A model generated the notes under the pieces. It made no database searches and was not told the origin of the DNA. It was given only the letters and a program-made list of their open reading frames with translations. Below, piece by piece: positions 1,378 through 25,498 of a stretch of DNA of 64,000 nucleotides; positions within the stretch are counted from its first letter, which is position 1, and each line of letters opens with the position of its first letter. The stretch lies in contig JBNGBT010000003.1 in the NCBI GenBank assembly GCA_049903315.1, positions 170,466 to 234,465 on the forward strand, given 5' to 3'. The DNA comes from Candidatus Cloacimonadota bacterium. Lineage in GTDB: Bacteria > Cloacimonadota > Cloacimonadia > JGIOTU-2. The translations under genes and the position numbers were made by a program.

Positions 1378-5488
<4,111 letters not shown>

Positions 5489-5489
<1 letters not shown>

Positions 5490-6781: not shown

Positions 6782-6808
6782 ATTATATCCTCTCTATAAT
6801 TGCCTATT

Positions 6809-8770
6809 TTATTCTTTAATGTTAGTCTGCTTTTTTTTTATTAATGCAAGGGTTCCACCTGCAAGCAGAATTTCTTTTTGTCGATCAGACAGATCATACG
6901 TTGTTTCAAACTCTGTTCCTTTTGATACGTTCTTAACAATTATGTTCTTACCTTCTCGTAATGTTTCTTTTATATTTGGAATTTCAAGTTCATCCGCTTG
7001 TTCTATTTCATTGTAATCATCTTCATTTTTGAAATTTAACGGAAGTATGCCAAAATTGATGAGGTTTGCATTGTGAATTCTTTCCATAGACTTTGCAATA
7101 ACAGCTTTCACTCCCATATACATCGGGCAAAGTGCGGCATGTTCACGGCTGCTTCCCTGACCATATGAAAGTCCTGCAACAATAATATTATCTTTTCCGT
7201 TTTCTTTGATTTCTTGTGCGCGATCATGAAATGTAGGATCAACTACTTCAAACAAAAATTCAGAATATTTTGGGATGTTTGATCGATACTTCATTTTCGA
7301 CCCGGCAGGTATTATGTGATCTGTTGTGATCAGGTCTCCTACTTTCAAAGTTACAACACCGGATATTTTATCTTTAAGTGGTTCTGCTGCTGGAGGATCG
7401 CCAATATTTGGGCCACGATAAATCCCCATCTCTCCCTTAATTGATTCAGGGAAAATGAACATGGAGTCATCAATATAAAATTTGTCCGGCATTTTAATTC
7501 TAGGATATTCAATTTCTATTTTCTCAAGATCTCTCGGGTCTGTAAATTTGCCTGTAATTACAGCGGCTGCTGCAGTTTCAGGACTCACCAGATATACATC
7601 TGCAGATTTTGTTCCTGATCTTCCAAAGAAGTTTCTGTTACTTGTTCTAAGTGATACTGCGCCTGTTTTAGGAGATTGACTGTTACCAATACAGAAACCA
7701 CACGCAGATTCTGCGATTCTTGCGCCTGCCGAAACAATGCTTTCAAAACCACCATCATGTATGATATTTTCAATTACCTGTTTTGAACCGGGTGCTACTA
7801 CAAAGCTTGTATCTTTACTTAGTTTTTGATCCTTTAAGATATTTGCTACAGTCATCATATCTTTGTAAGAAGAATTAGTACAACTTCCTATACAGACTTG
7901 ATCAACATTAATCTCACCGATATCTTTTACAGTGCTGATATTTCCGGGACTATGTGGAGTTGCTGCCATTGGAACAAGCTCGGAAAGATCTATATCAACA
8001 ACTTTATCATATTCTGCATCATCATCAGCGACTAGTTCCAGCCAGTCATCTTCACGGTCTTGGGCTTTTAAGAATTCTTTTGTGACTTCATCACTCGGGA
8101 AAATTGATGTTGTTACTCCGCATTCAGCCCCCATGTTTGTGATCGTCGCTCTTTCGGGAACGGATAGTGTGCTTACTCCAGGTCCACCATATTCAAATAT
8201 ACAACCCACATTTCCTTTAGTTGTAAATATTTCAAGAACTTTTAGTATTATATCTTTTGCTGCAATCCAAGGATTTAGTTTTCCCATTAAATTTATTTTT
8301 ATAATCTTTGGATAAGTTATATAGAATGGACCGCCAGCCATTGCCACTGCCACATCAAGACCTCCGGCACCGATTGCCATCATTCCGATCCCACCTCCGG
8401 TCGGAGTATGCGAATCTGAACCAAGAAGAGTTTTGCCAGGTTTGCCAAATCTTTCAAGCTGAACCTGGTGGCAGATTCCGTTCCCAGCCCTGGAATAAAC
8501 GATTCCATATTTTGCTGCAACAGATTGAAGGTATTTATGATCATCTGCATTTTCAAAACCGATTTGAACAGTGTTATGATCAACATAACTTACAGAAAGA
8601 TCGGTTTTCACTTTTGGAACACCCATCGCTTCAAATTGCAAATAAGCCATAGTACCGGTAGCATCTTGTGTAAGTGTTTGATCGATCCTGATACCTATTT
8701 CAGTACCTTTTTCTGGCTTTCCTTCGATAATGTGATTTGATAAGATTTTTTCTACTATGTTTTTTCCCAT
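6809..8770 (-). CDS. acn: Aconitate hydratase (~650 aa type)
   Basis: TQDATGTMA, GICHQV, GSDSHT, IGSCTN, ACGFCIG, TSNRNF, TTDHI, GSSREHAA; three Fe-S cysteines present. Confidence 0.92.
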   Translation of the reverse strand: MGKNIVEKILSNHIIEGKPEKGTEIGIRIDQTLTQDATGTMAYLQFEAMGVPKVKTDLSVSYVDHNTVQIGFENADDHKYLQSVAAKYGIVYSRAGNGICHQVQLERFGKPGKTLLGSDSHTPTGGGIGMMAIGAGGLDVAVAMAGGPFYITYPKIIKINLMGKLNPWIAAKDIILKVLEIFTTKGNVGCIFEYGGPGVSTLSVPERATITNMGAECGVTTSIFPSDEVTKEFLKAQDREDDWLELVADDDAEYDKVVDIDLSELVPMAATPHSPGNISTVKDIGEINVDQVCIGSCTNSSYKDMMTVANILKDQKLSKDTSFVVAPGSKQVIENIIHDGGFESIVSAGARIAESACGFCIGNSQSPKTGAVSLRTSNRNFFGRSGTKSADVYLVSPETAAAAVITGKFTDPRDLEKIEIEYPRIKMPDKFYIDDSMFIFPESIKGEMGIYRGPNIGDPPAAEPLKDKISGVVTLKVGDLITTDHIIPAGSKMKYRSNIPKYSEFLFEVVDPTFHDRAQEIKENGKDNIIVAGLSYGQGSSREHAALCPMYMGVKAVIAKSMERIHNANLINFGILPLNFKNEDDYNEIEQADELEIPNIKETLREGKNIIVKNVSKGTEFETTYDLSDRQKEILLAGGTLALIKKKQTNIKE

Positions 8771-9045
8771 ACAAAAACCCCTTTGGGGAGTAAATTTTTA
8801 ATTAGTTATTTTATAATTTCACTTTAATGTAATAGTTTGATTGAATGTAGTTTCGTTTAGCATCTATTATATTGCAGACCATAAAAAGTCTATGTGTATT
8901 ATTTTCCATAGTTTTTCGGGCTGATGTTGAATCAACCACTACAGTTAATAATTCTGTTTCTATCATTTATATCTCCGCAATAATAATAGCGCTAAAACTT
9001 GGTCACAAAATTTAGTGTCAATAATTTTATGTGTACTTATCTAAT

Positions 9046-9717
9046 TTATTGTTTTTTATTAATTTTTACAACATTTCGTAAAATATACACAAATATAAAA
9101 ATTCCGATTGCATTCCCGAGCACCATCGGCAGTATGATCTCTTTCACAAGCGCAATAGAATTTGCATAAGGTTTTGAGAGGAGCAGTATGAGGATCATAT
9201 GGAAAAGCTCAAGGCATACAACAACTGTTATTGCCATCCAGTAGGACAGGGATTTTTTAAAGGATTTAGAAACAAACCCCGCGATAACTCCTGCGAGAAG
9301 AGTTGCAAGAGAGCAGGGAAGTTGAGTAAAACCCCCTAAAAGAAAACGGTGCAATCCAGCCAGGAATCCTGTGATAATGCCAATGATAGGTCCACCGATA
9401 AAGCCCGCAATAAAGGGAGCTGTATCGCGGATATTCGATATTGCTCCAACAACCGGAATCCCTAGAGTCGTGCCATAGATGCCAATAATTACAAAGAGGA
9501 TTATTGTTCTTGCCGAATCCCAGGCAGTTGCTTTTTCTAAAAATACATTTTTAAAGGTTTCACTTTTACTGAAGAGGAAGAATATAAACATTACAAGCAG
9601 ACTTTCCTGTAGTAGACTATACACAGATTTCAGGATCGCTACGCTTTTTACTGGCGCAGCATTGAGCGTCGTCGCGCACATAATGAGCAAGAATAAAACA
9701 AAGATTAGTTTTCTCAT
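9046..9717 (-). CDS. Stand-alone LytS/YhcK-type 5TM receptor (5TM-5TMR_LYT) membrane protein
   Basis: GAISNIRD, GFIGGPIIG, AGLHRFLLGGFT, ELFHMILILLLSKPY and IILPMVLGN match the LytS membrane domain. The ORF ends with no cytoplasmic output domain. Confidence 0.8.
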   Translation of the reverse strand: MRKLIFVLFLLIMCATTLNAAPVKSVAILKSVYSLLQESLLVMFIFFLFSKSETFKNVFLEKATAWDSARTIILFVIIGIYGTTLGIPVVGAISNIRDTAPFIAGFIGGPIIGIITGFLAGLHRFLLGGFTQLPCSLATLLAGVIAGFVSKSFKKSLSYWMAITVVVCLELFHMILILLLSKPYANSIALVKEIILPMVLGNAIGIFIFVYILRNVVKINKKQ

Positions 9718-9728
9718 TTCGGACCTTT

Positions 9729-10937
9729 CTATTTGCTGTTTATTGAATGATTTTCTTCATAGAATGTTAGATTTGATGTCCACTCATAAGACCCATCCAT
9801 TTCTTCTATTTTCCAGAAATCGTAGTTGCCGAATTTTCTATCTCCGGCTTTGTTCAGCGCAGTCCAGCCGGTGCATCCATAATATGAATTTGCAGTGTGT
9901 ATAAAGGCATTTGCGAGTTCTTTAGGCTTACCTTCTTTTGCTACAATATTGGATAATGCAGCCAGCCAGCATGCATCATAAGCTGCTAACACATAGGATG
10001 AGGGTGTTTCATTATATTTGTTTGTGATTTGCAGATCAATAAAATGCGCTTTCTCAGTCTTATCAGGACTATACATCGGGCAGAGAAAATCTACAGCGAT
10101 AGTTGCCTGAACTGCGATTGGGTTTTTTACAATCAAATCGTTTATGGCTGTTCCATCGCTTCCAAACCATCGCACACTCATAAGATTTGGATAATATGAA
10201 AGTGCTGTAAAAACAGGAACTGCTTCATCAAAAGCAAGGAAATATATACATAGTTCATTTGGCGAGTATGTTTTTAATGAATTTTTGACCAGATCGTCCA
10301 GCCGGCTTAAGTATTTATCAAAATTTACAGAAAGAGGATCAAAAGCAATACCTTCCACAAACTGAATCGGAGAAGTGCCGAGATATTCATCCATTGCATT
10401 AATGAGTCCCCTACCCCATGCATCATCCCGCCAAAATGGGAGCACTGCCTTATACTCCATGTTCTTCATATATGTTGCTATTGCAATTGCCTGGTGATTA
10501 TCATCAGGAATCAAGCGGAAGATAAAATCATTTTCAACTGCAAGGTCTGGAGCTGTGCTCTCTGTACTGATGACGATCATATCGTTCTCGTCCACAAAGG
10601 GTTTGATGGCGGAGAGTTCCGAACTTGCCTGAACACCGATTATTGTTTTTATCCCTTTTGAATGCATCAACTTTGCCTTGCGCAATGCAACTATTGGATC
10701 TGTTTGAGTATCTTGAAATTCAATATGAAAGGAATAGGATTTTCCTATGCAAGTTAGATAAGAGTTGATGTCCTTTTCGGCAATTTCGCATCCTACCTGT
10801 GCCGATTTTCCGAAGGAAGCAAGGTCTCCCGAGAGTGACAGAAACGCTGCGATAGTAATATCTTTTTCAGTAGAACATCCTGCAATAATAAGCAGGACTA
10901 AAATAAAGCTTAACGCAAAAAAAGTAATTTTTTTCAT
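9729..10937 (-). CDS. Periplasmic-binding-protein type 1 lipoprotein (branched-chain amino acid/ANF-receptor-like SBP)
   Basis: Lipobox IIAGC; LSLSGDLASFG, STAPDL, FIFRLIPDD, AYDA, GWTALNKAGDR. Confidence 0.8.
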   Translation of the reverse strand: MKKITFFALSFILVLLIIAGCSTEKDITIAAFLSLSGDLASFGKSAQVGCEIAEKDINSYLTCIGKSYSFHIEFQDTQTDPIVALRKAKLMHSKGIKTIIGVQASSELSAIKPFVDENDMIVISTESTAPDLAVENDFIFRLIPDDNHQAIAIATYMKNMEYKAVLPFWRDDAWGRGLINAMDEYLGTSPIQFVEGIAFDPLSVNFDKYLSRLDDLVKNSLKTYSPNELCIYFLAFDEAVPVFTALSYYPNLMSVRWFGSDGTAINDLIVKNPIAVQATIAVDFLCPMYSPDKTEKAHFIDLQITNKYNETPSSYVLAAYDACWLAALSNIVAKEGKPKELANAFIHTANSYYGCTGWTALNKAGDRKFGNYDFWKIEEMDGSYEWTSNLTFYEENHSINSK

Positions 10938-10959: not shown

Positions 10960-11292
10960 TTATTTTAGTTCCTCAATCGCCTCATCGATTGTATTAAAGA
11001 TCGGAAAATCAGAATGGAAGTCAACAAGTTCAAGTATATGAAGAATATCATCATTCACTCTGCAGAGCGCGATTACACCATTGCTGTTCAGTTCGCGAAG
11101 AGCATAGTAAAAGGCACGGATACCCGAACTGCTTATATACTCAAGTTTTGAGCAATCAACAAGGATAGTATACTCTCCGTTAAGTATGTGTTTTATCAGA
11201 GTGTCTTGAAAATCCTTTGATGTGAATGAATCGATTTTTCCGTCAACACTGATGATGCGTATATTCTTTTCCTTATTTGTCGTGATATGCAT
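10960..11292 (-). CDS. STAS-domain anti-sigma factor antagonist (RsbV/SpoIIAA-like)
   Basis: VDCSKLEYISSSGIR phospho-Ser motif; 110 aa from ATG 11292, with GGAG upstream. Confidence 0.88.
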   Translation of the reverse strand: MHITTNKEKNIRIISVDGKIDSFTSKDFQDTLIKHILNGEYTILVDCSKLEYISSSGIRAFYYALRELNSNGVIALCRVNDDILHILELVDFHSDFPIFNTIDEAIEELK

Positions 11293-11296
11293 AAAA

Positions 11297-13369
11297 TTAC
11301 TCCTCTCTATTATTGGCGAAATACTGGATAGCAAGCATTGTGATATCATCGGACTGTGGTGTCCCTTCGGCAAATTTATGAACCTCTTTTATTATCATTT
11401 TTAGAATTTCATTGGGTGCTGCATGAGATTGTGTTCGTAAAGTTTTTTCTAATTTATTTTCCCCAAACAGTTCATCCTTTGTATTTGCTGCTTCGGTAAT
11501 GCCGTCTGTGTACAGGAATATACTTTGATGGTCTGACAATGTCAGGTTTTCTGAAGTATATTCAACCTTTCTCCTTAGTCCAAGTGGTGTTTTATGAGGA
11601 AGTTCAATCAATTCTATTTGATCTTCTTTGAGCAAATATGGAAGATTGTGTCCTGCACTCGTGAGTGAAATATGGCCATTTTTCACGTTAAGAATCCCAA
11701 GTAGAAGCGTGACAAACATGCAATGCTCATTATCCCTGTAGAGTTCTGTGTTCACTTCAGATATTATTTCAGAAGGAGACGGGATGCCGGATTGTTCCCT
11801 TTTGAGCAACATGCTGGTGGCACGTATCAGACTTTTACTTCGAGCCATGAAAAGAGCTGCAGGCACTCCTTTGTCTGATACATCTCCTATCAAAAAGCAT
11901 AAGTGATCATCGTCGATAAAGAAGAAATCATAGAGATCACCACCAACTTCTTTTGCAGGTTCGAGTAGTGCGTAAATATCAATCTCATTTCTGTCCGGAA
12001 AAGCGGGAAAGGCCTGAGGTAGCATGCTCATCTGAATTTCATGAGCTATGCGGAGTTCGCTTCGGATTTTCTCGTTAGCCGCAGTGGTGAGTTTGAGATC
12101 GGTAATATATTGCTGCAGAGTTCTTTCCATGTTGATAAAAGTTCCTGCAAGATGTCCCATTTCATCATGGGAGCTTCTCGTGAGATGAGTTAACTCGGCG
12201 GAATCAGTTATACCAAAATTGTTTTCCGTAAGTTGCCGTGCGTGTGCAGTAAGGGTTTTCACCGGTTTTGTGAAACGGTGAACTATAAAGAAAGTAACCA
12301 TACTTGCTATAAGTAAAGCGGCTAATGTAATAAGGAGTTCTCTGTGAAAGATACGTCGCGAAGGCTCCTTCATTTCATCGATATAGAATGCAGATGCGAT
12401 ATACCAATAAAGTGGTTCAAAATAATCTACATATGCGATTTTTTTGAATTTTTCAGTTCCTTCGTACCCGGGTTTATTCCACAAATATATGTAGGGTTTA
12501 TCCGGATTTTTTGATGCTTTAACAAGATGTTCCCAGTGGTCAATTCCCATTCCTGGCTCATCCACATCTGCAAAATCAACCCCTTCCATTGTAGGATGGA
12601 CAAGAACGATATGGTTCTTATTAAAAATGAAAAAATAACCATTCTCACCGATACGGATCTTTGAAAAGGTTTTTCGAAATTCGCTCAGAATTTCTTCAAG
12701 TTTGTTTTCAATATCCCTGTCAATATCATCGATATAAACTCCCGTTCCGACTATCCAATTCCATGGCTTGAAATAGGAATTGTAGGATAGTTTTTCAACT
12801 GGTTTTGTTTCATCGAGACGGATATACCAAAAAGACTCAAAACAACTCCCTGTTTTATACACATTATCCTTGATCATCTTAAGCGGATAGTTACCTTTCA
12901 TATCCTGGTATTCTGTCATATTAGTGCCTTTAATATTTGGATCGGGATGTGAAATTGCGACAAGATCTGTATTATAAATGTAAAAATAATCATTATTCCC
13001 ATAGCGGAAATTTTCAACACTTCCCAAAGCAAATGCCTTTGCATCCTGCTCAGAAAGTATCCCCTTTTTATAAAGATTGTGGTAATATTCTATGTCTGAA
13101 ATAACAAGCCCGGTGACGTTCTTGAGTTGCTCTTTGTATCGGTTTAAGGCATACTCTTTATGAAAAAGCAAGCTGCGATATTCATTTTCAACATACAATT
13201 TGATGAGCTTCCGCATATCATGAACTGAACCAGTAATAGTATTCCACATGATTTTCTCGACTTCATACTGAGTGAGAAGCATAAATGCAACTGTTGTGCA
13301 AACAAGTATGACAAGAATGAGAAGGAGCATCTTTGTGGTAAAAGAAAGGGAGTGCAATGATATTTTCAT
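11297..13369 (-). CDS. Membrane PP2C/SpoIIE-type phosphatase with tandem Cache sensor domains and HAMP
   Basis: TM, two Cache-like repeats (FRYGNNDYFYI...WIVGTGVYIDD; IGENGYFFI), TM, HAMP (DEMGHLA), and PP2C motifs EVGGDLYD, GDVSDKG, YTDGITEA, DDITM. Confidence 0.9.
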   Translation of the reverse strand: MKISLHSLSFTTKMLLLILVILVCTTVAFMLLTQYEVEKIMWNTITGSVHDMRKLIKLYVENEYRSLLFHKEYALNRYKEQLKNVTGLVISDIEYYHNLYKKGILSEQDAKAFALGSVENFRYGNNDYFYIYNTDLVAISHPDPNIKGTNMTEYQDMKGNYPLKMIKDNVYKTGSCFESFWYIRLDETKPVEKLSYNSYFKPWNWIVGTGVYIDDIDRDIENKLEEILSEFRKTFSKIRIGENGYFFIFNKNHIVLVHPTMEGVDFADVDEPGMGIDHWEHLVKASKNPDKPYIYLWNKPGYEGTEKFKKIAYVDYFEPLYWYIASAFYIDEMKEPSRRIFHRELLITLAALLIASMVTFFIVHRFTKPVKTLTAHARQLTENNFGITDSAELTHLTRSSHDEMGHLAGTFINMERTLQQYITDLKLTTAANEKIRSELRIAHEIQMSMLPQAFPAFPDRNEIDIYALLEPAKEVGGDLYDFFFIDDDHLCFLIGDVSDKGVPAALFMARSKSLIRATSMLLKREQSGIPSPSEIISEVNTELYRDNEHCMFVTLLLGILNVKNGHISLTSAGHNLPYLLKEDQIELIELPHKTPLGLRRKVEYTSENLTLSDHQSIFLYTDGITEAANTKDELFGENKLEKTLRTQSHAAPNEILKMIIKEVHKFAEGTPQSDDITMLAIQYFANNREE

Positions 13370-15355: not shown

Positions 15356-17989
15356 TTACGTATCTTCCTCTTTTGGGATCGGCAAATTCTCAGTTTCACA
15401 AATCTCTTTTAGTCTGGAAAACGACCATTCAGCCTGATAATTGAAGAAATAGCCATATGGTTTTTGGAGTATATCAATCAAATCCCGGGTATTAGTATCA
15501 GTATTTTTCTGGCTGTATGATTTAATTTTTTTTAAATCCTTGTCGGAAAGTTTCAGCGTGATAAAAGTCAAAACATTACCCAGTTTTAGTTTGATATGTC
15601 CTAAACCGTCTTCGAGGATTTTTTTTCGAGCCCTGTTCACCTCTCTTTCGCCCACCTTATTTAAGACATTTGTATATTTTTCAAAAAGAATGTATTCATT
15701 CAGCATCTCTAAAATCAAATCATCGGAGAACGCGTTCCAGAATGCAACAGAGTGCTGCTGGCAGAGGAATCTGCCCAGCATGAATGAACCTGCCGTGTAA
15801 CCCTGTAAATTTTTCTTTCTGCAAACTGGAATGATCAACTTGAAAAGTGTGACCTTTCTATCCAAAGATAGAAGTTGATAGAGTTTGTGTTGATCTTGAT
15901 GGCTTCCTAGTTCGCTTTGTAAGAGTTCCTCAATGTAAAAATCTGTATTGGAATCAAACCAGGAGTTCATGAGTTTTTTTGCTTTTTGGGGATCTTTCTG
16001 CAGGTTGTTTCTTACCAATTTTATCAATTCATCAAGTTTTACAATATGATCTACCTGCATATTTTCTATGAGTTGATCGTACACCTTGAATGCTTTCGCC
16101 ATATTCTCGAATACTGTTCTTTCCTTCTTCTCCATTTCCAGTTTTTCGCCGTTCAAATATCTTTGGAATCGAGCCGGCTTATAATCTGCTTGTCCACAAA
16201 AAATGGTCTGTCTTTTACTGGAAATCGTAATTTGATCTCCCTCTGAGATTGTCATACCGTTTTCATTTACAAGATGATTTCCTTTTAGGGTAACACCAAA
16301 TTTTTCCAGATTTAGAAAAGCGGGAACTCCATAACTCCGGCAGGCAGTGACGACATGGATTGCAGCAGGGGTCAGGCTTACTATTGCATCAACCTCTGCC
16401 ATAACCAGAGTGTCAGACGGAACGAAGCTTTCTCTGCATATGCAGACTTTTTCTCCTCGCTTTTTTGCTTCCATGGCAGCGGCTGCTGAAAAATATGCTT
16501 TTGCAGAAACTGCTGTTCTGGGCAAAATTGATACACCTTTGCAGAAAAATTTCAATGTTTTGAATGATCTGTCATCGATTCTGTCTGAAAATATTTGTGT
16601 AAGATGATAGGGCTTGATCAACTCTATTACACGCTCGGCATCAATGACCTTTTTTTGGTAGAGATCAATTGCAGAAAGAAGAGTCGCTCTTCCAGTCAAC
16701 TCGGAAGTGTTTAGCTGTAATACTGCAAAAAGATATGCATCATCATAAGATTCCGCAGCAAATTCTACTGTCACCGGGGACTTTAATTTTTTCTCCAATT
16801 CCCGGAGTAGTGGCTCAAAATGATACACTGCCGGATACATATTTTTAATAGATTCGCGATTAAAAAACTCATGATCATTCGTTTCGATGAGTCCGGTCAT
16901 GATCTCTTCACCAAAAATATTCGGTAGACTCTCTACTTGAATACCTAAACCAGTTCGGGCGTGACGGCTGTATAAAACGCCAGGATAAGATTCGTCTCCC
17001 CGTACAGTCCATACCATTTTTTGCAAAATAATTGATGGGAATTTCTCACCTTTTCTTACAAATGTATGAAGTAAATCCTGATTTTTCTCAAAGTATTCAT
17101 AAGCCCTTCGCAAGAAAAAACAGACCTGATAAAAGGCATCATGTAAAAGCCGTTCGTCTTGAACAGAAATGCGCTTGTAGTGATAGTCGATCTCCTCATC
17201 GATACGATCCACTTCGATATTTTGCTCTGTCTCATATCCTCCAAAGAGGTTCAGTTCGAGGGTTCGCAGATTACTCAGATATATTTTTTTTGCAACAGTT
17301 TTTCCTAAAATTTTACTGAGAACCGGAAAATTTTTGCTGGTCACACCCACATTTAAAAAGGTGGGCATCAAGCCGGGGATATACGAGGGCATCGCAGAGC
17401 GCATTGCAATGATAAGAGGTTTGTCTTCCGAACCAAACTTCTGGGCAGACATCTGCTCCAGATTTTTTATAGCTTTATAAATATTTGCCTTTCTTTCTTC
17501 CTGTGATAGAAAGTAATTGTTGGAAGTAAGTATGCAAAAATCCGGTACAGGATAACCCTCTTGAATAATATCCAGTAACTTAGTGCCCTTATGACTTATC
17601 AAATCTACATCAAACATATTTTGCGTGCAAGAAGGCACTATTGATTCATTTTCCACAAAATTTAAATTTTGAAATTCTCTTTGTCTCTCTGCGATAAAAT
17701 CATGAATTTGGTTTGTTAACCTTTTGGCAGCTTCCACATCCTGACGCGAGGAAAGAATATTTTCAAGAATATCATGTCTTGCAGGAGCTGGATTCATGCA
17801 AAGATACACGCTTTCGCAATCAGTCAGGACGAGTGAGCCCGATTCGCCTCCCATAAGTTGATAATCCATTTCCACTGGCAAATAACCAGGGAGATAGCAT
17901 TTATCCTTATCAATATCTCCATTTAAGAATTGTTGTACCACATTGAAATTAAGATAATTTCCTCTAAATTTGAATGCCTTTAACACCAT
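15356..17989 (-). CDS. PPDK-like protein: nucleotide-binding domain plus phospho-His domain, with unknown N- and C-terminal domains
   Basis: HKGTKL..GYPVPDF, AMRSAMPSYIPGLMPTFLNVG, LQKMV..GVLYSRHARTG, FGEEIMTG and PAAIHVVTACR align by eye to PPDK. No PEP-binding barrel motifs follow. Confidence 0.75.
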   Translation of the reverse strand: MVLKAFKFRGNYLNFNVVQQFLNGDIDKDKCYLPGYLPVEMDYQLMGGESGSLVLTDCESVYLCMNPAPARHDILENILSSRQDVEAAKRLTNQIHDFIAERQREFQNLNFVENESIVPSCTQNMFDVDLISHKGTKLLDIIQEGYPVPDFCILTSNNYFLSQEERKANIYKAIKNLEQMSAQKFGSEDKPLIIAMRSAMPSYIPGLMPTFLNVGVTSKNFPVLSKILGKTVAKKIYLSNLRTLELNLFGGYETEQNIEVDRIDEEIDYHYKRISVQDERLLHDAFYQVCFFLRRAYEYFEKNQDLLHTFVRKGEKFPSIILQKMVWTVRGDESYPGVLYSRHARTGLGIQVESLPNIFGEEIMTGLIETNDHEFFNRESIKNMYPAVYHFEPLLRELEKKLKSPVTVEFAAESYDDAYLFAVLQLNTSELTGRATLLSAIDLYQKKVIDAERVIELIKPYHLTQIFSDRIDDRSFKTLKFFCKGVSILPRTAVSAKAYFSAAAAMEAKKRGEKVCICRESFVPSDTLVMAEVDAIVSLTPAAIHVVTACRSYGVPAFLNLEKFGVTLKGNHLVNENGMTISEGDQITISSKRQTIFCGQADYKPARFQRYLNGEKLEMEKKERTVFENMAKAFKVYDQLIENMQVDHIVKLDELIKLVRNNLQKDPQKAKKLMNSWFDSNTDFYIEELLQSELGSHQDQHKLYQLLSLDRKVTLFKLIIPVCRKKNLQGYTAGSFMLGRFLCQQHSVAFWNAFSDDLILEMLNEYILFEKYTNVLNKVGEREVNRARKKILEDGLGHIKLKLGNVLTFITLKLSDKDLKKIKSYSQKNTDTNTRDLIDILQKPYGYFFNYQAEWSFSRLKEICETENLPIPKEEDT

Positions 17990-18131: not shown

Positions 18132-20777
18132 TTAGAAAATGATCGTATATGATGTTCCATTTTTCTGATTTAATTTTAATGTTCCATTCAGCTGGGAAAT
18201 AAGATCCTGAATAAGCTGGAGCCCGAGTGAAGATTGACCGGCATTCTTAAGATCTTCAGTAAATCCTACTCCATCATCTCTAATTATGAGCTTATTTTTT
18301 CCTGCCTTGGTTTTTTTCATAGAGATGTACACTGTTCCTGTTTTGTCATCTGGAAATGCGTGTTTGAAAATATTGGTAAGTATTTCATTGCAGAGGAGTC
18401 CGCACGGAACCGCCTGGTTGAGATCGAGAGTAATAGGCTCTGCATCAATCTCAAAATTGATCTTGCTTTGCGGCATTCCCGTTGAACTAAACAGCGTATT
18501 GAATAATTCTTTTATATAATCTGCGAAATTGATATCGATGAAATTCTCCGACTCATACAGCTTTTCATGTATGATTGCCATTGAACGTATCCTGTTCTCC
18601 ACAATTTTAAACTTATCCACTATTGCTTCATCTTCGATATAAAGTGATTGTAAATGCAAGAGGCTGATGATGATCTGCATATTGTTTTTTACACGGTGAT
18701 GGATCTCTTGCAGCATAACAACTTTTTCTTTCAAAGAATTTTCGACTTCGCGTTGGGAATTTTTTATGTCCGAAATATCCGCAAAAACCCCAAATGAGCC
18801 TACGTATTCATCATTTTCAAAAAGCGGTGTCGCATTGATAAGCAAGGATTTTATTTCCTCATTATAGGTCTGGCATCGAATTTCGAATCTGTCCTGTTTG
18901 CCCTCCTTTCTTCTCTGGGTCTGAAACAGGAGTTGCTCCAAATCCTCTTTCAATATGACATTTTTTAGATTTGTACCTTTAAGGTCTTCGAAAGGTATGT
19001 CAAAAATAACTCCTGCTGCTTGATTTGCAAAAACGATATTCTCATCTTCATCCACAAGCATAATACCTTCTTGCATTGTCTCGATGAGGTTTCTGTATTT
19101 TTCTTCGCTTTTCTGGAGCGCATTGAATATCTCTTTCTGTTCAGTACTATCTCGCTTGATCGCAACATAAAAGATGACGTTCCTGTCATGGTCCATAATT
19201 GGGAATGCTGAAATATCTATATAGAGATCTCGTCCGGCAGAGGTTTTCATATACGTCTCTGCACGGTAGAATTCATATTCGAGAAGCGCATCTCTCATTT
19301 CATTAAAATTTTCTTCACCCATATATACTGCAGGAGTTTCATCTTTAAGAGCTTCATTTGAATAGCCGAACAATTTTCTGTGAGAGGGGTTCTGTTCATA
19401 GAACGTAAAATCGGGTTTGATTATTTCGATGCTGTCAGTCGAGTAGTAAAAAACTTCTTTGAATAGTTGCAGGTTTTCTTCTGCTTTTGTTCTTTCATCG
19501 ATGAGTTTATTGGCAGATTCTGCGATCGCCTGAAATTCGGAAAAATGTACAGTGTCGGGCTGTATTTGTACATTTTCATTTTCTGCTTTTTGAAAGAATG
19601 CTACAAATGTTTTGAAATTATTCTTTAATTTTGCGGAGATATAAATAGAGGTATTTGCGATAATGACAACGATAAGAGCGAGAAGACCTATCACTTTTAG
19701 TATATGATTATTAATGCGTTCCCTTAATACGGTTTTTTCTTGAGCGATCAAGAATTCAATATCATCAAGATATACTCCTGCACCGATGATCCATTTCCAT
19801 TCCGGCAAACCTTCAATGTATGAAATTTTAGGATGAGATTCATTGTCGTCGATTTTATTCCAACTATACTCTATAAAACCACTTCCCTGTTCCTCAACAA
19901 TTTTCCGTTCATCCTGGATAATTTTCATACCCTCACTATCGGTCAGGTTCCAGATATTCTCAGTTCCAAGTGTGATCGTGCCATTTGAAAAAAGAGGATC
20001 ACCGTCGTAGGTAACTCCAAATATGTACCCATTTTCGCCAAACCGGACATTTGCCAGGCGTTCTATTGTAGAATATTTCAATTCTTCAATATAGCTTTCA
20101 TAATAATCACCAAGTGCGATTATCCAGTCATAAGGTTCAAAATATTTGACGTATGTCAGTTTAAGATAAGGTTTTTTTGAAGGATCATTTGGGATTGGAC
20201 GATAATACTCTATAAATCCTTCTCCCTGACTTTTTGCTTTTTTAATGTATTCGCGAACAAAATAAAAACCATTCACATCCCTTTGCTCCAATCGGTTATT
20301 GCCCTCTTCGGATTCAATAGGATTGTTGTTTTTATCAGATTGAAGGAGAAGTGCAGTTCCATCACCAGCTGTCACCGAATAATATCCTCGACCATAATTT
20401 TGTTTAAGAGGACGCAATACCGAGAGTATAAGTTTTTTAAGCTCCTGCTCCGGCATGGAATATCTGTTTTCATAATAGAGGTGTTCTACGATATCATAAC
20501 CCTGATAAAGCTGGGATCGTACCCGATTTCTTAAATCTTCACTGGCTTTATTGATACTTAACGTAATAAATTCAATTGAGTTTTGGACCTCATATTTTAT
20601 AATTTGTTTGTTCTTTTCAATAAATTGTTCGCGGATATCATGTGTTGATTGATTGAACTGTATGTATTCCTGGGAAATAAGGAAATATCCAAGCATTGCT
20701 ATAGAAATGGTCGTAACCAGCAGCATGCTTATAATAAATAGTCTGGATACACTTCGAGCTTTTTTCTTCATATTCAA
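18132..20777 (-). CDS. Membrane sensor histidine kinase (2x Cache, 2x PAS, HisKA_2/HATPase)
   Basis: Two TMs flanking Cache repeats; PAS domains; H-box EIHHRVKNNMQ, N-box NEILTNIFKHAF, DDGVG, SLGLQLI. Confidence 0.92.
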   Translation of the reverse strand: MNMKKKARSVSRLFIISMLLVTTISIAMLGYFLISQEYIQFNQSTHDIREQFIEKNKQIIKYEVQNSIEFITLSINKASEDLRNRVRSQLYQGYDIVEHLYYENRYSMPEQELKKLILSVLRPLKQNYGRGYYSVTAGDGTALLLQSDKNNNPIESEEGNNRLEQRDVNGFYFVREYIKKAKSQGEGFIEYYRPIPNDPSKKPYLKLTYVKYFEPYDWIIALGDYYESYIEELKYSTIERLANVRFGENGYIFGVTYDGDPLFSNGTITLGTENIWNLTDSEGMKIIQDERKIVEEQGSGFIEYSWNKIDDNESHPKISYIEGLPEWKWIIGAGVYLDDIEFLIAQEKTVLRERINNHILKVIGLLALIVVIIANTSIYISAKLKNNFKTFVAFFQKAENENVQIQPDTVHFSEFQAIAESANKLIDERTKAEENLQLFKEVFYYSTDSIEIIKPDFTFYEQNPSHRKLFGYSNEALKDETPAVYMGEENFNEMRDALLEYEFYRAETYMKTSAGRDLYIDISAFPIMDHDRNVIFYVAIKRDSTEQKEIFNALQKSEEKYRNLIETMQEGIMLVDEDENIVFANQAAGVIFDIPFEDLKGTNLKNVILKEDLEQLLFQTQRRKEGKQDRFEIRCQTYNEEIKSLLINATPLFENDEYVGSFGVFADISDIKNSQREVENSLKEKVVMLQEIHHRVKNNMQIIISLLHLQSLYIEDEAIVDKFKIVENRIRSMAIIHEKLYESENFIDINFADYIKELFNTLFSSTGMPQSKINFEIDAEPITLDLNQAVPCGLLCNEILTNIFKHAFPDDKTGTVYISMKKTKAGKNKLIIRDDGVGFTEDLKNAGQSSLGLQLIQDLISQLNGTLKLNQKNGTSYTIIF

Positions 20778-20783
20778 TATATT

Positions 20784-22499
20784 TTAGTGTTCAAAATGAA
20801 TAGTGAGAACAATCTTGTTTTTCTCTTTTTTGGAAGAGGTAGCATCAGCATCTTTTTTGATAAGGTAGCCGGCAAGTTCAGTAGCAGCGCTATCCTCTGT
20901 CATCAAACTTTCTTTTGAAGGTTTCCTTTCTGGGAAGACTAAAATCTTGCCCTGATATTCTATAGTAATGTCCAGGTTAAACTCATCAAAACTCACCTGC
21001 ATACTAATTTCCTTTGAGGTTAATCCAAGATTTGGTGTACTCTCCATAAACTCATTCATTACGGTTATTGCTTTATAAATGATACTTGGACGCGCACCCC
21101 ATGAACCCCCAGCTTTTTGCATAAATTTATAAATCTTGTCAGATGATTCCTGTCCAGCGGCAAGCATGAGTGTTAATTTCTTCTTTACGCCAATTCTCAT
21201 GAGGAGATTGAGCACAACTGCGGTCACAGCTCCTAAAGATAAAGAGGATTGAAAAATAGGTTTGAGCCATGAATGAATGTTTACATAAGCAATAGGGATC
21301 ATGTCAGCGCTGAGCCCGAAAATGAGAGCGATACCAACCACAAAGATCTTTCGGGAATCAAGCATTCTACTCATGATTATTTGAAAACCTGAGATTATCA
21401 TGAAGCTTATTGCATAGATAAGTGTTGCACCCATAACGGGTTTGGGCATTATGATAAATATGTTCGCAAGTTTTGGAAAGAATCCGAGAAATATAAGAAT
21501 GCCGCCTGCGCTGTATGCAATTGTTCTACTCGTTGCTCCGGTAGCAATGGAAAGTCCGACGTTCGTCGAAGAAGTGGACTGGCCAAAACCTCCGAATATT
21601 CCCGGAATAATACCTCCCAGACCATCAGCAAGAATTCCTTTTGAGATGGATTTCATTTCAGGACGTTTCCAATTTGCATCATTAATTTTCTGACACGTGG
21701 TAAGATCACCTACTGTTTTCAGTGCCGAGCAAAGTGCTGCAATGACAAATGGTACGAGTAACCTGGCGTCAAAAGCCCATGATAGACTTTTAAGATAGGG
21801 GGCATCAATAATCCTGGAATGCATTATTTTGTGAAAATCTGCTTCTGTGAACAAGCCGAATATATAGGCAAGTATATAACCTGAAATCATTCCTATCAGA
21901 CAGCTATAAAGGCGAAGTTTTCCTTTGCCGAAAACATTCAATCCTATCATTAAAAGGAGGACAGAAATTCCTACAATCAATTCCGAAGATGTGATAATAG
22001 TATCTGTATCACTCAATCCGACAAAGCTTTTTATCGAAATGGGAATGATCGTGATACCGACCATTGCCACGATAGTTCCTGTTACTTCGGATGGGAACAG
22101 AACTCTGAGCTTGTGCATGAATCTTGAAAAGATGGATTCTGCGACTCCAACAAAAGCAGTCATCCCAAACAGAACAGGTAAACCGCCACCCGATATTGCC
22201 ATGAACGATGCCTGCAGATAGGAAGGACCGCACACAGATGGACACAGATAGCCTGAGCCAACAGGTCCTTTTTTTAGCGCTTGGAGAATTGTCACAATAC
22301 CACTGGAGATCATTGTGATGCTTATAAAACCACTGGCTGTGCGCGGATCGATATTTGTTCCAAAATAATTTACAATCATCACAGGGAATATCATCGCGAT
22401 GAAAATAACAAAAACGTGCTGCAATCCGAGAAAGAATGTGACCGAAAGTGGCGGTTTGTCATTCACGCCATAAATTAGGTTGGCTGGTTTTTGTATCAT
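20784..22499 (-). CDS. NCS2 (xanthine/uracil permease) family protein with a ~135 aa cytoplasmic C-terminal extension
   Basis: LIYGVNDKPP, GLQH, LFPSEVTG, GILADG, NVGLSIATG, MPKPVMGA; hydrophilic tail after about aa 437. Confidence 0.85.
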   Translation of the reverse strand: MIQKPANLIYGVNDKPPLSVTFFLGLQHVFVIFIAMIFPVMIVNYFGTNIDPRTASGFISITMISSGIVTILQALKKGPVGSGYLCPSVCGPSYLQASFMAISGGGLPVLFGMTAFVGVAESIFSRFMHKLRVLFPSEVTGTIVAMVGITIIPISIKSFVGLSDTDTIITSSELIVGISVLLLMIGLNVFGKGKLRLYSCLIGMISGYILAYIFGLFTEADFHKIMHSRIIDAPYLKSLSWAFDARLLVPFVIAALCSALKTVGDLTTCQKINDANWKRPEMKSISKGILADGLGGIIPGIFGGFGQSTSSTNVGLSIATGATSRTIAYSAGGILIFLGFFPKLANIFIIMPKPVMGATLIYAISFMIISGFQIIMSRMLDSRKIFVVGIALIFGLSADMIPIAYVNIHSWLKPIFQSSLSLGAVTAVVLNLLMRIGVKKKLTLMLAAGQESSDKIYKFMQKAGGSWGARPSIIYKAITVMNEFMESTPNLGLTSKEISMQVSFDEFNLDITIEYQGKILVFPERKPSKESLMTEDSAATELAGYLIKKDADATSSKKEKNKIVLTIHFEH

Positions 22500-22517: not shown

Positions 22518-25454
22518 TCATTTGATCAGGTCTGCTTCGCATTTGACACAGTTTTTTCCAAGTTTCTTGCCCATATAAAGAGCCTGATCTGCCTGGTTTA
22601 TAGTTTCGTCAATAGTTTTGTTTTCTTGATAAATGCTTAAACCCATTGTTATTGAAACATGAATATTCTTCCCAAGGAAATCAAATTCCTTGGATTTCAC
22701 TTTCACTCGAATCTTTTCTGCAAGGATGAGTCCTCCATCAATGTCTGTTTGTGGAAGAAGAAGGAGAAACTCTTCTCCACCCCACCTTGAAACTGTGTCC
22801 TGTTTTCTCACATTCATGCACATAATATTTGCAAGAGTTTTCAATACTTCATCCCCGGTATCATGCCCGAACCGGTCATTAATGGATTTGAAATCGTCAA
22901 TATCACAAATTATGATTGCAAAAGGTTTTTCGCTTCTTCCAAAGCGGCGTTTTTCATATTTTATCTTTTCCATGATATCCCGGCGATTTGAAAGCTGGGT
23001 AAGAGGGTCGGTTCTTGCGAGAAGTTCGAGTTTCTTATTTGCATCCTTTAATTTGTCTTCTGCAAGTTTTCTTTCTGCGATTCTGCCCAGTTGATCTGAG
23101 ACTGCATGAAGCAGATGTGATTCTTCTTTTGAAAAAGGTCCGATGAAATCTTCTGGACGCGATTCAAGGTATCCTACCTCTATTGAACCGAGCACTTTAT
23201 TGTATGAAACAATATCCTCGCTGATATGCCAATCGGTTGATTTATAATTTTCTGAAGTAAATATTTCATTATTCCAGGTTATTTTGACATAGGTGATTTC
23301 AGGATATATCCATGCTTGTGCAATGATCTCAAGACTATTTTTGAGAACCATTTCCATTGAAATTTCAGGATCTTCAACAATATCCGAAATTTTATAGAGG
23401 CAGTTCAGTTCTTTTACTCGTTCGTTGAGTTCTTGAGTTCTCTGTCGAAGTGCATCTTCAGCAAATTTCCTGCTGGTTATATCTCTTGCAACTGCCTGAA
23501 ATCCTATTATATTTCCACCTTCTAATAACAATGAGGTATTTTGTCCCAACCATGAATCTTTGCCCGTAAGTGTTACGATCTCGAATTCATGATATGTATT
23601 CATGGTTTTATCAAAGAATTGATGCTGATAAAAATGTTTTAACTTTGCCCGATTCTTTTTTGTTACAATGTCAAGGCTGCTCCTTCCAACAATCTTATCT
23701 GCAGGCATGCCAAAGAATTTTTCTCCAACTGCATTTACATATGTAATATTTCCTTTTACATCCATACGATATATGATATCATTGGCATTCTCGACGAGTT
23801 CTCTATAACGTTCTTCACTCTTTCTAAGAGCTTCCTCAGCAATTTTTCTGTCTGAGATATTTCTATAAATACCATAAACCGCAAGCTGCCCGCCCTCAAA
23901 AATAATCGGTGTACCAAGAATCGACACATCTACTGGAGTGCCGTTCTTGTGCCAGCGAACTGTGTCAAAAGCAACTGTTTCACCATGTGCGATTTTATCG
24001 GTTACGTCTTTTGCTTCATCTCTGTATTCGCCGCGTGTAAGAAGCGTGTCGATTTTTTTGTATCTTGCTTCATCGATAGTATAGCCGAAAGTCCGCGTGA
24101 ATTGCGCGTTCATCCTGAGAATACGGCTTTCGTTATCAATGAGCACGATTGCTTCCGGGGCGTTTTCAAAAAGCTGTTCAAAATATGCGCGCTCGATCCG
24201 TTGGGCATCCTCTGCCCGTTTGTGTGAAATGGCTATTGCAAGCTGTTCAGAAACGAATTCCAAAATTTCAAGATCATCCTTTGTATACAGGTTTTCATCT
24301 TCATAACTTTGAACAGCTACGACACCAATAACTTGTTTCTCTATCCTTAAAGGAACCCCAAGCCATATTTTTGATGGAGATCCCACACTCTCGATCAAGC
24401 CCTTTTTTGTCATTTTTATATTGAGTTTCTCATCAACGAGAAGTGGTTTATTATGTTTGATCACATAGCCAGTGAGAGTTTTTCCAGCCGGGAAAGAGGT
24501 GAATTTATCTTCTTCGTCAATAATGTAGGGAAGAGAGATGGTGTCACTTGCTTTATCATATAGTGCGACATAGAAATTTGTTGTATCAATTATTTCGCCC
24601 AAATGTTTCTGTATAGATTGAAAAAGCTCTTGGATACTCTCTGTAGCATTCACTGCATTTGAGATGTTATAAAGTGCATTCTGAATGCGTTGTGCCTTAT
24701 CTATTATTGTGATGTCCCTGAATGCAAGTACCAATCCCGCTGTCTCTCCGGTCGTTTTAACAGTTGGGGAGATGCTTCCTTCAATTATTTTTTCCGATTC
24801 ATTTCTGGTGATAAGAGTAGAAGAAGGTATTTTTGTTAATTTTTTGATATGTGAAGGATTATCTATGAGTTTGCATGTTTCTTTAGTTGTGTCGATACAT
24901 GTTATTCGAAAAACTGAATTCAGGGGCTGCCCTTTCACCTCTTCAGACCATCCGGTAATCACTTTTGCTATATCGTTGATATACAGGATATTCCCTTTTT
25001 TGTCAGTTGTGATAATGCCGTCACTAATACTCTGGAGCGTGGTTTGAAGAAGCCGTTCATTCTCCCGGATTTTCTGTTCAAGAGCGTACCGTTCAAGTGC
25101 TATTTCGATGCCAGCTAAAAGTTCTTTTTTCTGAAAGGGTTTTATTATATATCCATATGGAGCAGTTTCTTTTGCGCGCTTGAGGGTTTCGTTATCAGAG
25201 TAGGATGTTGCAAAGATTATCGGCACTTTTATTTCATCTAAAATTTTAGCTGCTGTTTGAATGCCGTTAATATCGCCCCCCAGAACAATGTCCATCAAAA
25301 TCACGTCAGGTTTTTTTTCGGTAGCTTCAATGAGTGCTTTTTCTCCCGAAGTGCATATGCCCACGACATTATAATCTAATCCTCTCAACATAGCTTCAGT
25401 ATTTTTAGCGACAATTATCTCATCTTCCACTATGAGAACATTAGTTTTTGTCAT
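22518..25454 (-). CDS. Diguanylate cyclase (REC-PAS-GAF-PAS-PAS-GAF-like-GGDEF)
   Basis: REC (LIVEDE, DVILMDI, KPF), PAS and GAF domains, DPLTQLSNRR, DIDDFKSINDRFGHDTGD, I-site RKQD and active site GGEEF. Alternative GTG start at 25460. Confidence 0.93.
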   Translation of the reverse strand: MTKTNVLIVEDEIIVAKNTEAMLRGLDYNVVGICTSGEKALIEATEKKPDVILMDIVLGGDINGIQTAAKILDEIKVPIIFATSYSDNETLKRAKETAPYGYIIKPFQKKELLAGIEIALERYALEQKIRENERLLQTTLQSISDGIITTDKKGNILYINDIAKVITGWSEEVKGQPLNSVFRITCIDTTKETCKLIDNPSHIKKLTKIPSSTLITRNESEKIIEGSISPTVKTTGETAGLVLAFRDITIIDKAQRIQNALYNISNAVNATESIQELFQSIQKHLGEIIDTTNFYVALYDKASDTISLPYIIDEEDKFTSFPAGKTLTGYVIKHNKPLLVDEKLNIKMTKKGLIESVGSPSKIWLGVPLRIEKQVIGVVAVQSYEDENLYTKDDLEILEFVSEQLAIAISHKRAEDAQRIERAYFEQLFENAPEAIVLIDNESRILRMNAQFTRTFGYTIDEARYKKIDTLLTRGEYRDEAKDVTDKIAHGETVAFDTVRWHKNGTPVDVSILGTPIIFEGGQLAVYGIYRNISDRKIAEEALRKSEERYRELVENANDIIYRMDVKGNITYVNAVGEKFFGMPADKIVGRSSLDIVTKKNRAKLKHFYQHQFFDKTMNTYHEFEIVTLTGKDSWLGQNTSLLLEGGNIIGFQAVARDITSRKFAEDALRQRTQELNERVKELNCLYKISDIVEDPEISMEMVLKNSLEIIAQAWIYPEITYVKITWNNEIFTSENYKSTDWHISEDIVSYNKVLGSIEVGYLESRPEDFIGPFSKEESHLLHAVSDQLGRIAERKLAEDKLKDANKKLELLARTDPLTQLSNRRDIMEKIKYEKRRFGRSEKPFAIIICDIDDFKSINDRFGHDTGDEVLKTLANIMCMNVRKQDTVSRWGGEEFLLLLPQTDIDGGLILAEKIRVKVKSKEFDFLGKNIHVSITMGLSIYQENKTIDETINQADQALYMGKKLGKNCVKCEADLIK

Positions 25455-25498
25455 GTGCACTCTTTTCTAATTATTATCTGATATTAAAGCAGATTATG

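Follow-up and report, generated by a model that had tools for sequence, protein, structure and literature searches.

Partner switching is the textbook means of freeing and trapping sigma factors; its outputs other than sigma factors are few, with mechanisms that are mostly unclear, and HsbA-HsbD and SiaB-SiaC are among the systems concerned. Further ones are SypE-SypA, BtrU/V/W and RbaV/W (available sections of the STAS review PMC8256260). In such systems a PP2C phosphatase and an RsbW-type kinase switch a STAS protein that acts on a target which is not a sigma factor, the targets being enzymes, secretion systems or unknown, and the same sections describe neither a transporter nor a built-in pseudokinase among them. 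Transporters of the SLC26/SulP family carry an element of the same toolkit, the STAS domain, in cis, as a C-terminal cytoplasmic domain after the last helix of a 7+7 transmembrane fold. This paper deals with an NCS2 permease gene and its neighbours on a stretch of 64,000 nucleotides from Candidatus Cloacimonadota bacterium (GenBank assembly GCA_049903315.1, contig JBNGBT010000003.1, positions 170,466 to 234,465 of the forward strand), the whole of which is called the window hereafter. The permease has a related 7+7 fold and likewise bears a domain of the partner-switching toolkit after its last helix, but it belongs to a different transporter family (NCS2, PF00860) and, whereas SLC26/SulP proteins contain the STAS domain itself, it carries what is predicted to be a STAS-binding, anti-sigma-like domain, the STAS partner being a separate phosphorylatable protein. 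The best reading of this tail is as a pseudokinase docking site that lets a partner-switching module control the transporter or receive information from it. No account of an RsbW-like domain on an NCS2 permease came up in the literature search, and the available sections of PMC8256260 are silent on one.

In an AlphaFold 2 model of the full-length permease (45 alignment rows; predicted local distance difference test, pLDDT, 88.9; predicted template modelling score, pTM, 0.82), the last membrane helix comprises residues 419-434, and from there to the final residue the chain forms a folded domain, which is the same as in a model of the tail alone (pLDDT 95.7, pTM 0.89). The tail-only model was built with alignment A1, consisting of 46 tail-only fragments (45 relatives and the window tail) which were not selected by motif; tail residues are numbered on their own below, and 436 is to be added to obtain the number in the protein. 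The model consists of a strand (4-11), helices (17-31 and 35-54), the strands of a beta hairpin (61-68 and 72-79), a loop, two further helices (93-98, 102-114) and a second beta hairpin (strands 117-123, 126-134). A preliminary description of this DNA, made by eye from the letters, had placed a tail of about 135 amino acids (aa) after the last transmembrane segment, at 20784..21190, with a layout like that of RsbW/SpoIIAB: a helix KIYKFMQK, an N-box-like helix KAITVMNEFMES, strands EISMQVSFDEFNLDITIEYQG, then ELAGYLIKKDAD and a terminal strand. The length and the position hold, although the upper bound is one base off the codon boundary at 21191, and each of the elements coincides with a modelled element of like kind.

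The tail is widespread. When it was searched alone against 1.84 billion representative proteins, 412 clusters were matched at E <=1e-3, 138 at <=1e-10 and three at <=1e-30, and among the matches listed it forms the C-terminal end of each protein of at least 540 aa; PF00860 is carried by 45 of 45 full-length members. The shorter matches look like C-terminal fragments, although those of 112 aa with a start at an internal Met (e.g., P0011) may be either fragmentary gene calls or proteins in their own right. The window tail itself has no match at E <=10 in Pfam, none in NCBIfam and, as a single sequence, none among the PDB sequences, where the 46-row profile also obtained merely two chance-level matches (E 0.17 and 0.65). 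Because no model in Pfam (2025 copy) or NCBIfam (June 2026) covers these 412 clusters, the tail family escapes present-day annotation.

The fold and the homology of the tail to the anti-sigma serine kinases RsbW and SpoIIAB are established by structure and profile comparisons. When the tail model was compared with the PDB by Foldseek, the top 11 ranks were taken by SpoIIAB, UsfX and RsbW (E 8.4e-7 to 2e-5, TMq 0.63-0.73), the best match being SpoIIAB 1til_E (E 8.4e-7, TMq 0.71), with 1th8, 1l0o, 1tid and 1thn as further SpoIIAB entries and with UsfX (8ih8_D, 8jzt_B) and RsbW (6m36, 6m37) within the same ranks. Also in the list are SiaB, as SiaB-SiaC (6kko), and Rv1364c, by its RsbW domain (3ke6, TMq 0.68, root-mean-square deviation 2.5), and histidine-kinase catalytic domains match much more weakly (E ~1e-2). 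In addition, hhalign aligned the 46-row tail profile with a profile of genuine HATPase_c_2 domains (14 domains from neighbours of tailed permeases) over 131-137 collinear columns with a probability of 96.3-97.1% (E 1.4e-10 to 1.8e-9), while the controls gave 0.2% (tail with STAS), 1.4% (tail with SpoIIE) and 0.9% (reversed tail with the genuine profile). Sub-threshold collinear matches to PF13581 were seen in 6 of the 45 relatives (the best scoring 20.7 bits where 27.4 are required and spanning positions 7-125 of the 127 in the profile), and the ESM Atlas gave a weak lead, a score of 0.93 to a cluster in which 15% of the members have PF13581. Thus the RsbW/SpoIIAB (HATPase_c_2)-like identity that had been read from the sequence is borne out by Foldseek, by the profile comparison and by these sub-threshold matches: the Bergerat/GHKL fold has the RsbW order of elements, and no unrelated known domain was matched. 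A STAS-like tail, by analogy with SulP, had also been considered and was rejected, since the fold search leads to GHKL proteins and hhalign gives STAS 0.2%.

The nucleotide-binding residues of the RsbW family have been lost from the tail, as the preliminary description had suspected for the Asn, the Asp and the glycines; this was confirmed by hhalign mapping and in 85 of 85 tails, namely those of 78 genomic loci (described below) and of the window. The Mg-binding Asn of the N-box maps to S51 (aa 487), one residue past the N-box relic listed in Table 1, and this position is Ser in 44 tails, Ala in 32, Thr in 4 and Asn in none. In the G1 box the adenine-binding Asp is replaced by Tyr (Y79 and G81 in 85/85; among 45 full-length proteins G517 is invariant and Y515 conserved at >=90%), and in the G2 box 'GGLG' has become 'xxL[S/A]', with L106 in 85/85, Ser or Ala at position 107 in 85/85 and then G108 in 68/85. 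On the other side, the N-box Glu is kept as E47 in 78/85 tails, beside conserved N46 (68/85) and E50 (76/85); these residues were absent from the earlier list and are new here. The canonical ATP and Mg ligands are absent throughout the 85 tails as aligned, and with the N-box Asn, the G1 Asp and the G2 glycines gone, the tail is not expected to act as a canonical kinase. The tail is best read as a catalytically dead, diverged homologue of RsbW/SpoIIAB, that is, as a predicted pseudokinase.

In comparison with SpoIIAB, RsbW and UsfX, the tail has in common the Bergerat fold, the order of elements, homology over the whole domain, the N-box Glu and a gene context with STAS and PP2C genes; in the complex model described below, the phospho-serine loop of STAS also comes to lie at the (relic) active site. 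It differs from them in that they stand alone, whereas it is a C-terminal fusion to a 14-helix transporter; in that the ATP-binding residues are lost and the domain falls below the Pfam cutoff; and in that it has no evident sigma factor partner, occurs in archaea and has motifs of its own. In alignment A1, F68, D69, E70, Y79, G81, P91, D116 and H135 are near-invariant, and there is a GxxWGAR motif between the first two helices, of which G28 and W31 are found in 84/85 tails and A33 and R34 in 81/85 (in protein numbering, G464, W467, A469 and R470 are conserved at >=90% in alignment A3). The FDEFNLD motif, of which F68, D69 and E70 form the near-invariant part, lies at the hairpin turn, has no counterpart in RsbW and is complete in 51 of 159 stored proteins; the extreme C-terminus, HFxH, keeps H132 in 83/85 and H135 in 84/85.

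The distribution of the tail was examined in 185,579 species genomes, which were scanned with the pattern [VA]xFDEFNLD taken from a 16-row alignment (A2). This gave 362 stretches, of which 324 were confirmed, so at least 324 of the scanned genomes carry the tail; the counts below refer to the best 80 stretches, kept as 78 loci, and because the pattern selected for FDEFNLD, the invariance of this motif among them is not evidence. The loci span Cloacimonadota, Ignavibacteria, Nitrospirae, Syntrophales and other Thermodesulfobacteriota, Bacillota, Verrucomicrobiota, Binatia and Acidobacteriota, and 14 of them are archaeal, mostly from Methanothrix; carriers include cultured organisms (Sporomusa silvacetica, Pelotomaculum propionicicum and Candidatus Formimonas warabiya). 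In 69 of the 78 loci the motif is part of an open reading frame (ORF) of 566-621 aa, ending at the conserved His in nearly all (the end of L044 is deviant), and in 6 others the frame is cut by a contig edge; a tail hidden Markov model (HMM) matched in 78/78.

Neighbouring genes were characterized by Pfam scans of 259 ORFs within two genes of the permease and counted by a six-frame local HMM search. The recurring neighbours are STAS proteins, SpoIIE/PP2C phosphatases with 5TMR-LYT, HAMP or dCache domains, and genuine HATPase_c_2 kinases (88-102 bits), the last either free or fused to the phosphatase; SpoIIE-HATPase_c_2 fusions adjoin the permease in L017, L025, L029, L032, L052, L053 and L060. 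Such RsbU-RsbW-type proteins, of which Rv1364c from M. tuberculosis (3ke6) is an example, resemble the tailed permease in having an RsbW-type domain as a module of a larger protein, but unlike the tail their domains lie far above the Pfam cutoff (101.5 bits in L017), keep the ATP motifs and are fused to a phosphatase. In 49 of the 78 loci the permease has at least one partner-switching domain within 3 kb (STAS in 42, SpoIIE in 35, the kinase in 22 and all three in 14), and 31 of the 48 loci in which both flanks reach 3 kb are positive. The matches are mostly on the permease strand, and their density falls with distance by ~28-fold, from 55 in 141.7 kb at 0-1 kb to 3 in 218 kb at 5-8 kb, which serves as an internal control. 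The order of the genes varies with the lineage: STAS, 5TMR-LYT-SpoIIE, kinase and permease in Methanothrix; SpoIIE, STAS and permease in Syntrophales; permease, SpoIIE and STAS in Ignavibacteria/Bacteroidales; and permease, HAMP-SpoIIE-kinase fusion and STAS in Binatia and in deltaproteobacterial metagenome-assembled genomes (MAGs). A module lies within 3 kb in 10 of the 14 archaeal loci. Sigma-factor genes were found within two genes of the permease at two loci (L023 and L026), and no candidate sigma gene adjoins the permease in the window.

A complex of the tail (A1) with the STAS protein of the window (A4, 21 rows) was then modelled. The score was 0.71 (0.71, 0.72 and 0.70 in the runs), and the best of three controls reached 0.05; the mark of 0.71 is attained by 116 of 157 solved complexes and by 2 of 215 mismatched pairs, counts which are only a rough guide here because own alignments were used. 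The runs share >=92% of the contacts, and the pLDDT of the partner is >=91. In the modelled interface, N46, E47, E50 and residues 90-98 and 102-110 of the tail face S54-R59 of STAS, E47 touches S54 and S55, and the G2-relic helix L106-L110 is the core of the contact, the contacts of lowest error being those of S54, S55, I58 and R59; the phospho-serine of STAS is thereby set on the relic active site. The contact residues N46, E47, E50 and L106-Y109 are among the conserved residues of the tail. The STAS motif in the window is 'ISSSGIR', and S54, S55 and R59 are invariant in 21 STAS proteins, 20 of which are from tailed-permease loci. As modelled, the tail still looks like a STAS binder, which is a statement of likeness and not of binding by this copy. 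The proposal that it is a protein-interaction module tied to the PP2C/STAS genes gains support from 49 of the 78 loci, from the gene order in the relative L002 (see below) and from this model, and on these grounds appears sound.

The best explanation of the whole, with a probability of roughly 0.6, is a dead RsbW-like tail, docking of STAS and the transporter as the output of partner switching. STAS would be dephosphorylated by a phosphatase with a sensor part (SpoIIE joined to dCache/HAMP or to 5TMR-LYT); the unphosphorylated STAS would dock on the tail in the manner of SpoIIAA on SpoIIAB, its phospho-serine loop coming to lie at the former active site; and a separate kinase would phosphorylate it again, so that STAS would alternate between this kinase and the tail of the permease. 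Transport would change with the occupancy of the tail, and the transporter would take the place of the sigma factor as the output of the module.

Several observations weigh against this explanation. The PF13581 cutoff (27.4 bits) is reached by none of the 45 relatives, and the window tail has no PF13581 match at E <=10. The high score of the complex may reflect memory, because the SpoIIAB-SpoIIAA and RsbW-RsbV complexes have been solved. FDEFNLD, GxxWGAR and HFxH, the most invariant motifs of the tail, lie outside the modelled STAS interface. Within 3 kb, no partner-switching gene was found in 29 of the 78 loci, including L001, L003 and L004, that is, three of the four close Cloacimonadota relatives, and 27 of the 49 positive loci have no genuine kinase, so that the phosphorylation cycle is incomplete as seen. 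In the window itself the PP2C-STAS pair lies 7.4 kb downstream of the permease with three other genes between; in L002, the tail of which is 85% identical, the orthologous dCache-SpoIIE and STAS (84% identical) genes come directly after the permease, the phosphatase lying 430 bases past it. Furthermore, no RsbW-type kinase gene is present in the 64-kb window by Pfam scans (48 non-overlapping ORFs of >=70 aa) or by the local HMM search (six-frame ORFs of >=50 aa), in agreement with the preliminary description, according to which the PP2C/STAS operon lacks an RsbW gene of its own there. This HMM search matched STAS (10966-11292), SpoIIE (11309-11932), the tail and nothing more, and HATPase_c_2 scored just once in the window, weakly (E 1.1e-4), the match falling on the catalytic part of the histidine kinase encoded at 18132-20777. 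The RsbW-type kinase for the window module may be encoded elsewhere in the genome.

The scarcity of kinase genes in these loci and in the window bears on the idea that the tail is an atypical but active kinase, which binds nucleotide non-canonically and phosphorylates STAS where a separate RsbW gene is absent. The STAS proteins of the kinase-less loci keep the phospho-serine motif, the N-box Glu is retained with N46 and E50 conserved beside it, and the model sets S54 and S55 of STAS against just this Glu. All the same, every tail lacks the Asn for Mg, the Asp for adenine and the G2 glycine loop; a genuine kinase, superfluous if the tail were active, is encoded beside the tailed permease in 22 loci; and the positions concerned, being invariant, show no difference between kinase-bearing and kinase-less loci. 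An active tail is very improbable.

Loci devoid of the module, and signature motifs outside the modelled STAS interface, would also be expected if the tail were a structural or ligand-sensing domain unrelated to STAS, serving for dimerisation, for stability or for the recognition of a small molecule in the remodelled pocket, with the neighbourhood reflecting shared regulation. RsbW-type proteins and NCS2 transporters are both dimers, and a ligand could stack on the invariant Tyr where adenine was once bound. Such a role can hardly account for an enrichment of STAS, PP2C and RsbW genes that is specific, mostly on the same strand, decaying with distance and found across bacterial phyla and archaea, nor for the coincidence of the conserved N46, E47, E50 and L106-Y109 with the modelled STAS contacts, and it is considered improbable.

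The third alternative reverses the direction of the signal: the permease would be a transceptor, in which the transport cycle or the occupancy by substrate alters the hold of the tail on STAS or on the kinase, so that the permease is the sensor and the output lies elsewhere, for example in cyclic di-GMP synthesis or in a sigma factor. The permease of the window lies inside a signalling operon, with a REC-GGDEF gene upstream and a histidine kinase gene downstream (gaps of 18 and 6 bases), and this order is common to the Cloacimonadota relatives L001, L003 and L004; because the gap is 18 bases, the REC-GGDEF gene and the permease are probably in one operon. Fusions of STAS with a PALP enzyme beside the permease in L009, L016 and L031 indicate that STAS can carry other cargo, and the divergence seen in the core at the residues that bind nucleobases would suit a sensor. 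On the other hand, the phosphatase in most positive loci already has a sensor (5TMR-LYT, HAMP or dCache) which supplies the input, the archaeal operons of STAS, phosphatase, kinase and permease have no other candidate for an output within two genes, and the core keeps the full NCS2 fold at high model confidence. A sensing permease is unlikely in comparison with the transporter-as-output explanation.

If the transporter is the output, several consequences follow. What is new here is a proposed partner-switching module the RsbW-like element of which is a pseudokinase built into a transporter, together with the STAS/PP2C/RsbW gene neighbourhood of the tailed permeases. The broader claim stands at about even odds: that these permeases constitute a widespread, undescribed class of partner switching, among many phyla of bacteria and in archaea without sigma factors (such as Methanothrix), in which the transporter is the direct output and carries its own pseudokinase "anti-STAS" domain, on which STAS docks in trans. 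If it is true, the tailed permeases are a mirror image of the SLC26 transporters, with which a direct comparison is set up, a function is given to the archaeal RsbU/RsbV/RsbW homologues, and it is explained why archaea that lack sigma factors keep the module beside the permease. Post-translational control of solute uptake by a phospho-switch would join the partner-switching repertoire, and a natural bacterial GHKL pseudokinase would be seen to be used purely as an interaction module. The sequence by itself seems sufficient here to identify the target, a transporter with a dead copy of the kinase for a docking site, and the system is compact, consisting of three or four proteins, several of them from cultured organisms. 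The features of the window are collected in Table 1.

Table 1. Features of the tailed NCS2 permease and of its signalling neighbours in the window (positions in the 64,000-nucleotide stretch)
Feature	Position	Strand	Residues and basis
NCS2 permease gene	20784..22499	minus	Single ORF, 571 aa, ATG start; stop codon 20784-20786
NCS2/NAT transmembrane core	21192..22499	minus	aa 1-436; Pfam, NCBIfam, Foldseek
RsbW/SpoIIAB-type degenerate GHKL (Bergerat-fold) cytoplasmic tail	20787..21191	minus	aa 437-571 (135 aa); AlphaFold 2, Foldseek, hhalign
GxxWGAR motif between helices 1 and 2	21090..21110	minus	aa 464-470; family-specific
N-box relic	21042..21056	minus	aa 482-486 (tail N46-E47-F-M-E50); hhalign mapping
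FDEFNLD motif at hairpin turn	20970..20990	minus	aa 504-510; family signature, RsbW without counterpart
G1-box DxG relic	20949..20957	minus	aa 515-517 (tail Y79-Q-G81); adenine-binding Asp replaced by Tyr
G2-box helix relic	20862..20876	minus	aa 542-546 (tail L106-A-G-Y-L110); glycine-rich loop lost
HFEH extreme C-terminus (H-F-[D/E]-H, then stop)	20787..20798	minus	aa 568-571; conserved
REC-PAS-GAF-PAS-GGDEF response regulator/diguanylate cyclase gene	22518..25460	minus	Ends 18 bases before permease start; Pfam
dCache-PAS-HisKA_2-HATPase_c histidine kinase gene	18132..20777	minus	Starts 6 bases after permease stop; Pfam
dCache-HAMP-SpoIIE (PP2C) sensor phosphatase gene	11297..13369	minus	Directly upstream of STAS gene; Pfam
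STAS (anti-sigma antagonist type) gene	10960..11292	minus	110 aa, ATG at 11292; Pfam STAS E 6.2e-20

The membrane core of the permease is that of an NCS2 transporter. Pfam PF00860 (Xan_ur_permease) matches aa 21-398 above its gathering cutoff (200.6 bits against 27), and the only NCBIfam model passed is the general NF037981 NCS2_1 (61.1 against 40); neither the xanthine permease model TIGR03173 pbuX (258.7 against 414.15) nor the uracil permease model NF007995 (84 against 477) is reached. The top Foldseek matches of the core are UapA (5i6c, E 3e-16, TMt 0.74-0.76), SVCT1 and UraA (TMt 0.79-0.80), so the UraA/UapA-type membrane fold is present, and SLC26 transporters rank after the NCS2 structures (E ~1e-7). 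In these searches the solved UapA, UraA and SVCT1 chains have no match beyond the membrane core (439-487 of 571 columns aligned). These transporters are alike in PF00860 and in the common membrane fold, but they differ from the permease at substrate positions. In UapA, the Glu of transmembrane helix (TM) 8 and the Gln/Glu of TM10 are substrate ligands. K261 of the permease (21717-21719) aligns with the Glu of the TM8 motif 'CECIGD', the position being Lys or Arg in 31 of 45 family members, and the TM10 position has become Ser, Ala or Thr in the family and Ser/Thr in this permease (aa 310-312, about 21564-21572). Because Lys261 and Ser/Ala/Thr replace acidic or amide residues, the substrate need not be a nucleobase, and judging from these replacements it may be anionic. 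Some loci have a pair of tailed permease genes, in tandem or near each other, as shown by two tail HMM matches per locus: L008, L025, L031, L054 and L078, and also L011.

Metabolic enzymes are met beside some tailed permeases. Directly upstream of the permease in L009 (722-2854), L016 (235-2361) and L031 (2027-4156) there is a protein of ~710 aa with a nitrile-hydratase-alpha-like N-terminus, a STAS domain and a PALP (pyridoxal phosphate-dependent) enzyme, and in L016 an ACT domain too; a free PALP enzyme follows the permease in a Methanothrix locus (L058:8520-9809). In these cases a metabolic enzyme may be held at the transporter through STAS, a possible hint at the substrate. A TIR-domain protein is encoded ahead of the STAS gene, at a distance of two genes upstream from the permease, in L050 (5113-5901), labelled as an uncultured delta proteobacterium, and in L063 (4124-4915), a Binatia MAG, and these two loci are related.

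As to the other genes of the window, the sensor phosphatase is well recognized by Pfam (dCache_2 E 4.2e-58, SpoIIE E 8.4e-46, HAMP E 1.3e-5). Just downstream of STAS, on the same strand, are a stand-alone 5TMR-LYT membrane module of 223 aa (9046-9717) and a periplasmic-binding-protein gene (9729-10937); 5TMR-LYT is fused to SpoIIE in many loci, whereas in the window it is a separate gene and the phosphatase has a dCache-HAMP sensor instead. The histidine kinase after the permease consists of two ORFs in L004 (Candidatus Celaenobacter antarcticus, 8421-9606), a dCache part of 255 aa and a HisKA_2-HATPase part of 152 aa, and the gene may be broken or mis-assembled there. In the window this kinase is followed by a conserved ORF of ~880 aa (15356-17989) with a weak sub-cutoff match to PPDK_N (E 9.3e-5) and to no other Pfam family, which is also found in the Cloacimonadota relatives (L001:10184-12838 and L003:8468-11104). 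Finally, a minus-strand series of genes for core carbon metabolism (1378-8770) encodes a monomeric isocitrate dehydrogenase, two ATP-citrate-lyase-type subunits with citrate-binding/ATP-grasp and CoA-ligase/citrate-synthase domains, and an aconitase, and it is compatible with a segment of the reductive tricarboxylic acid cycle.

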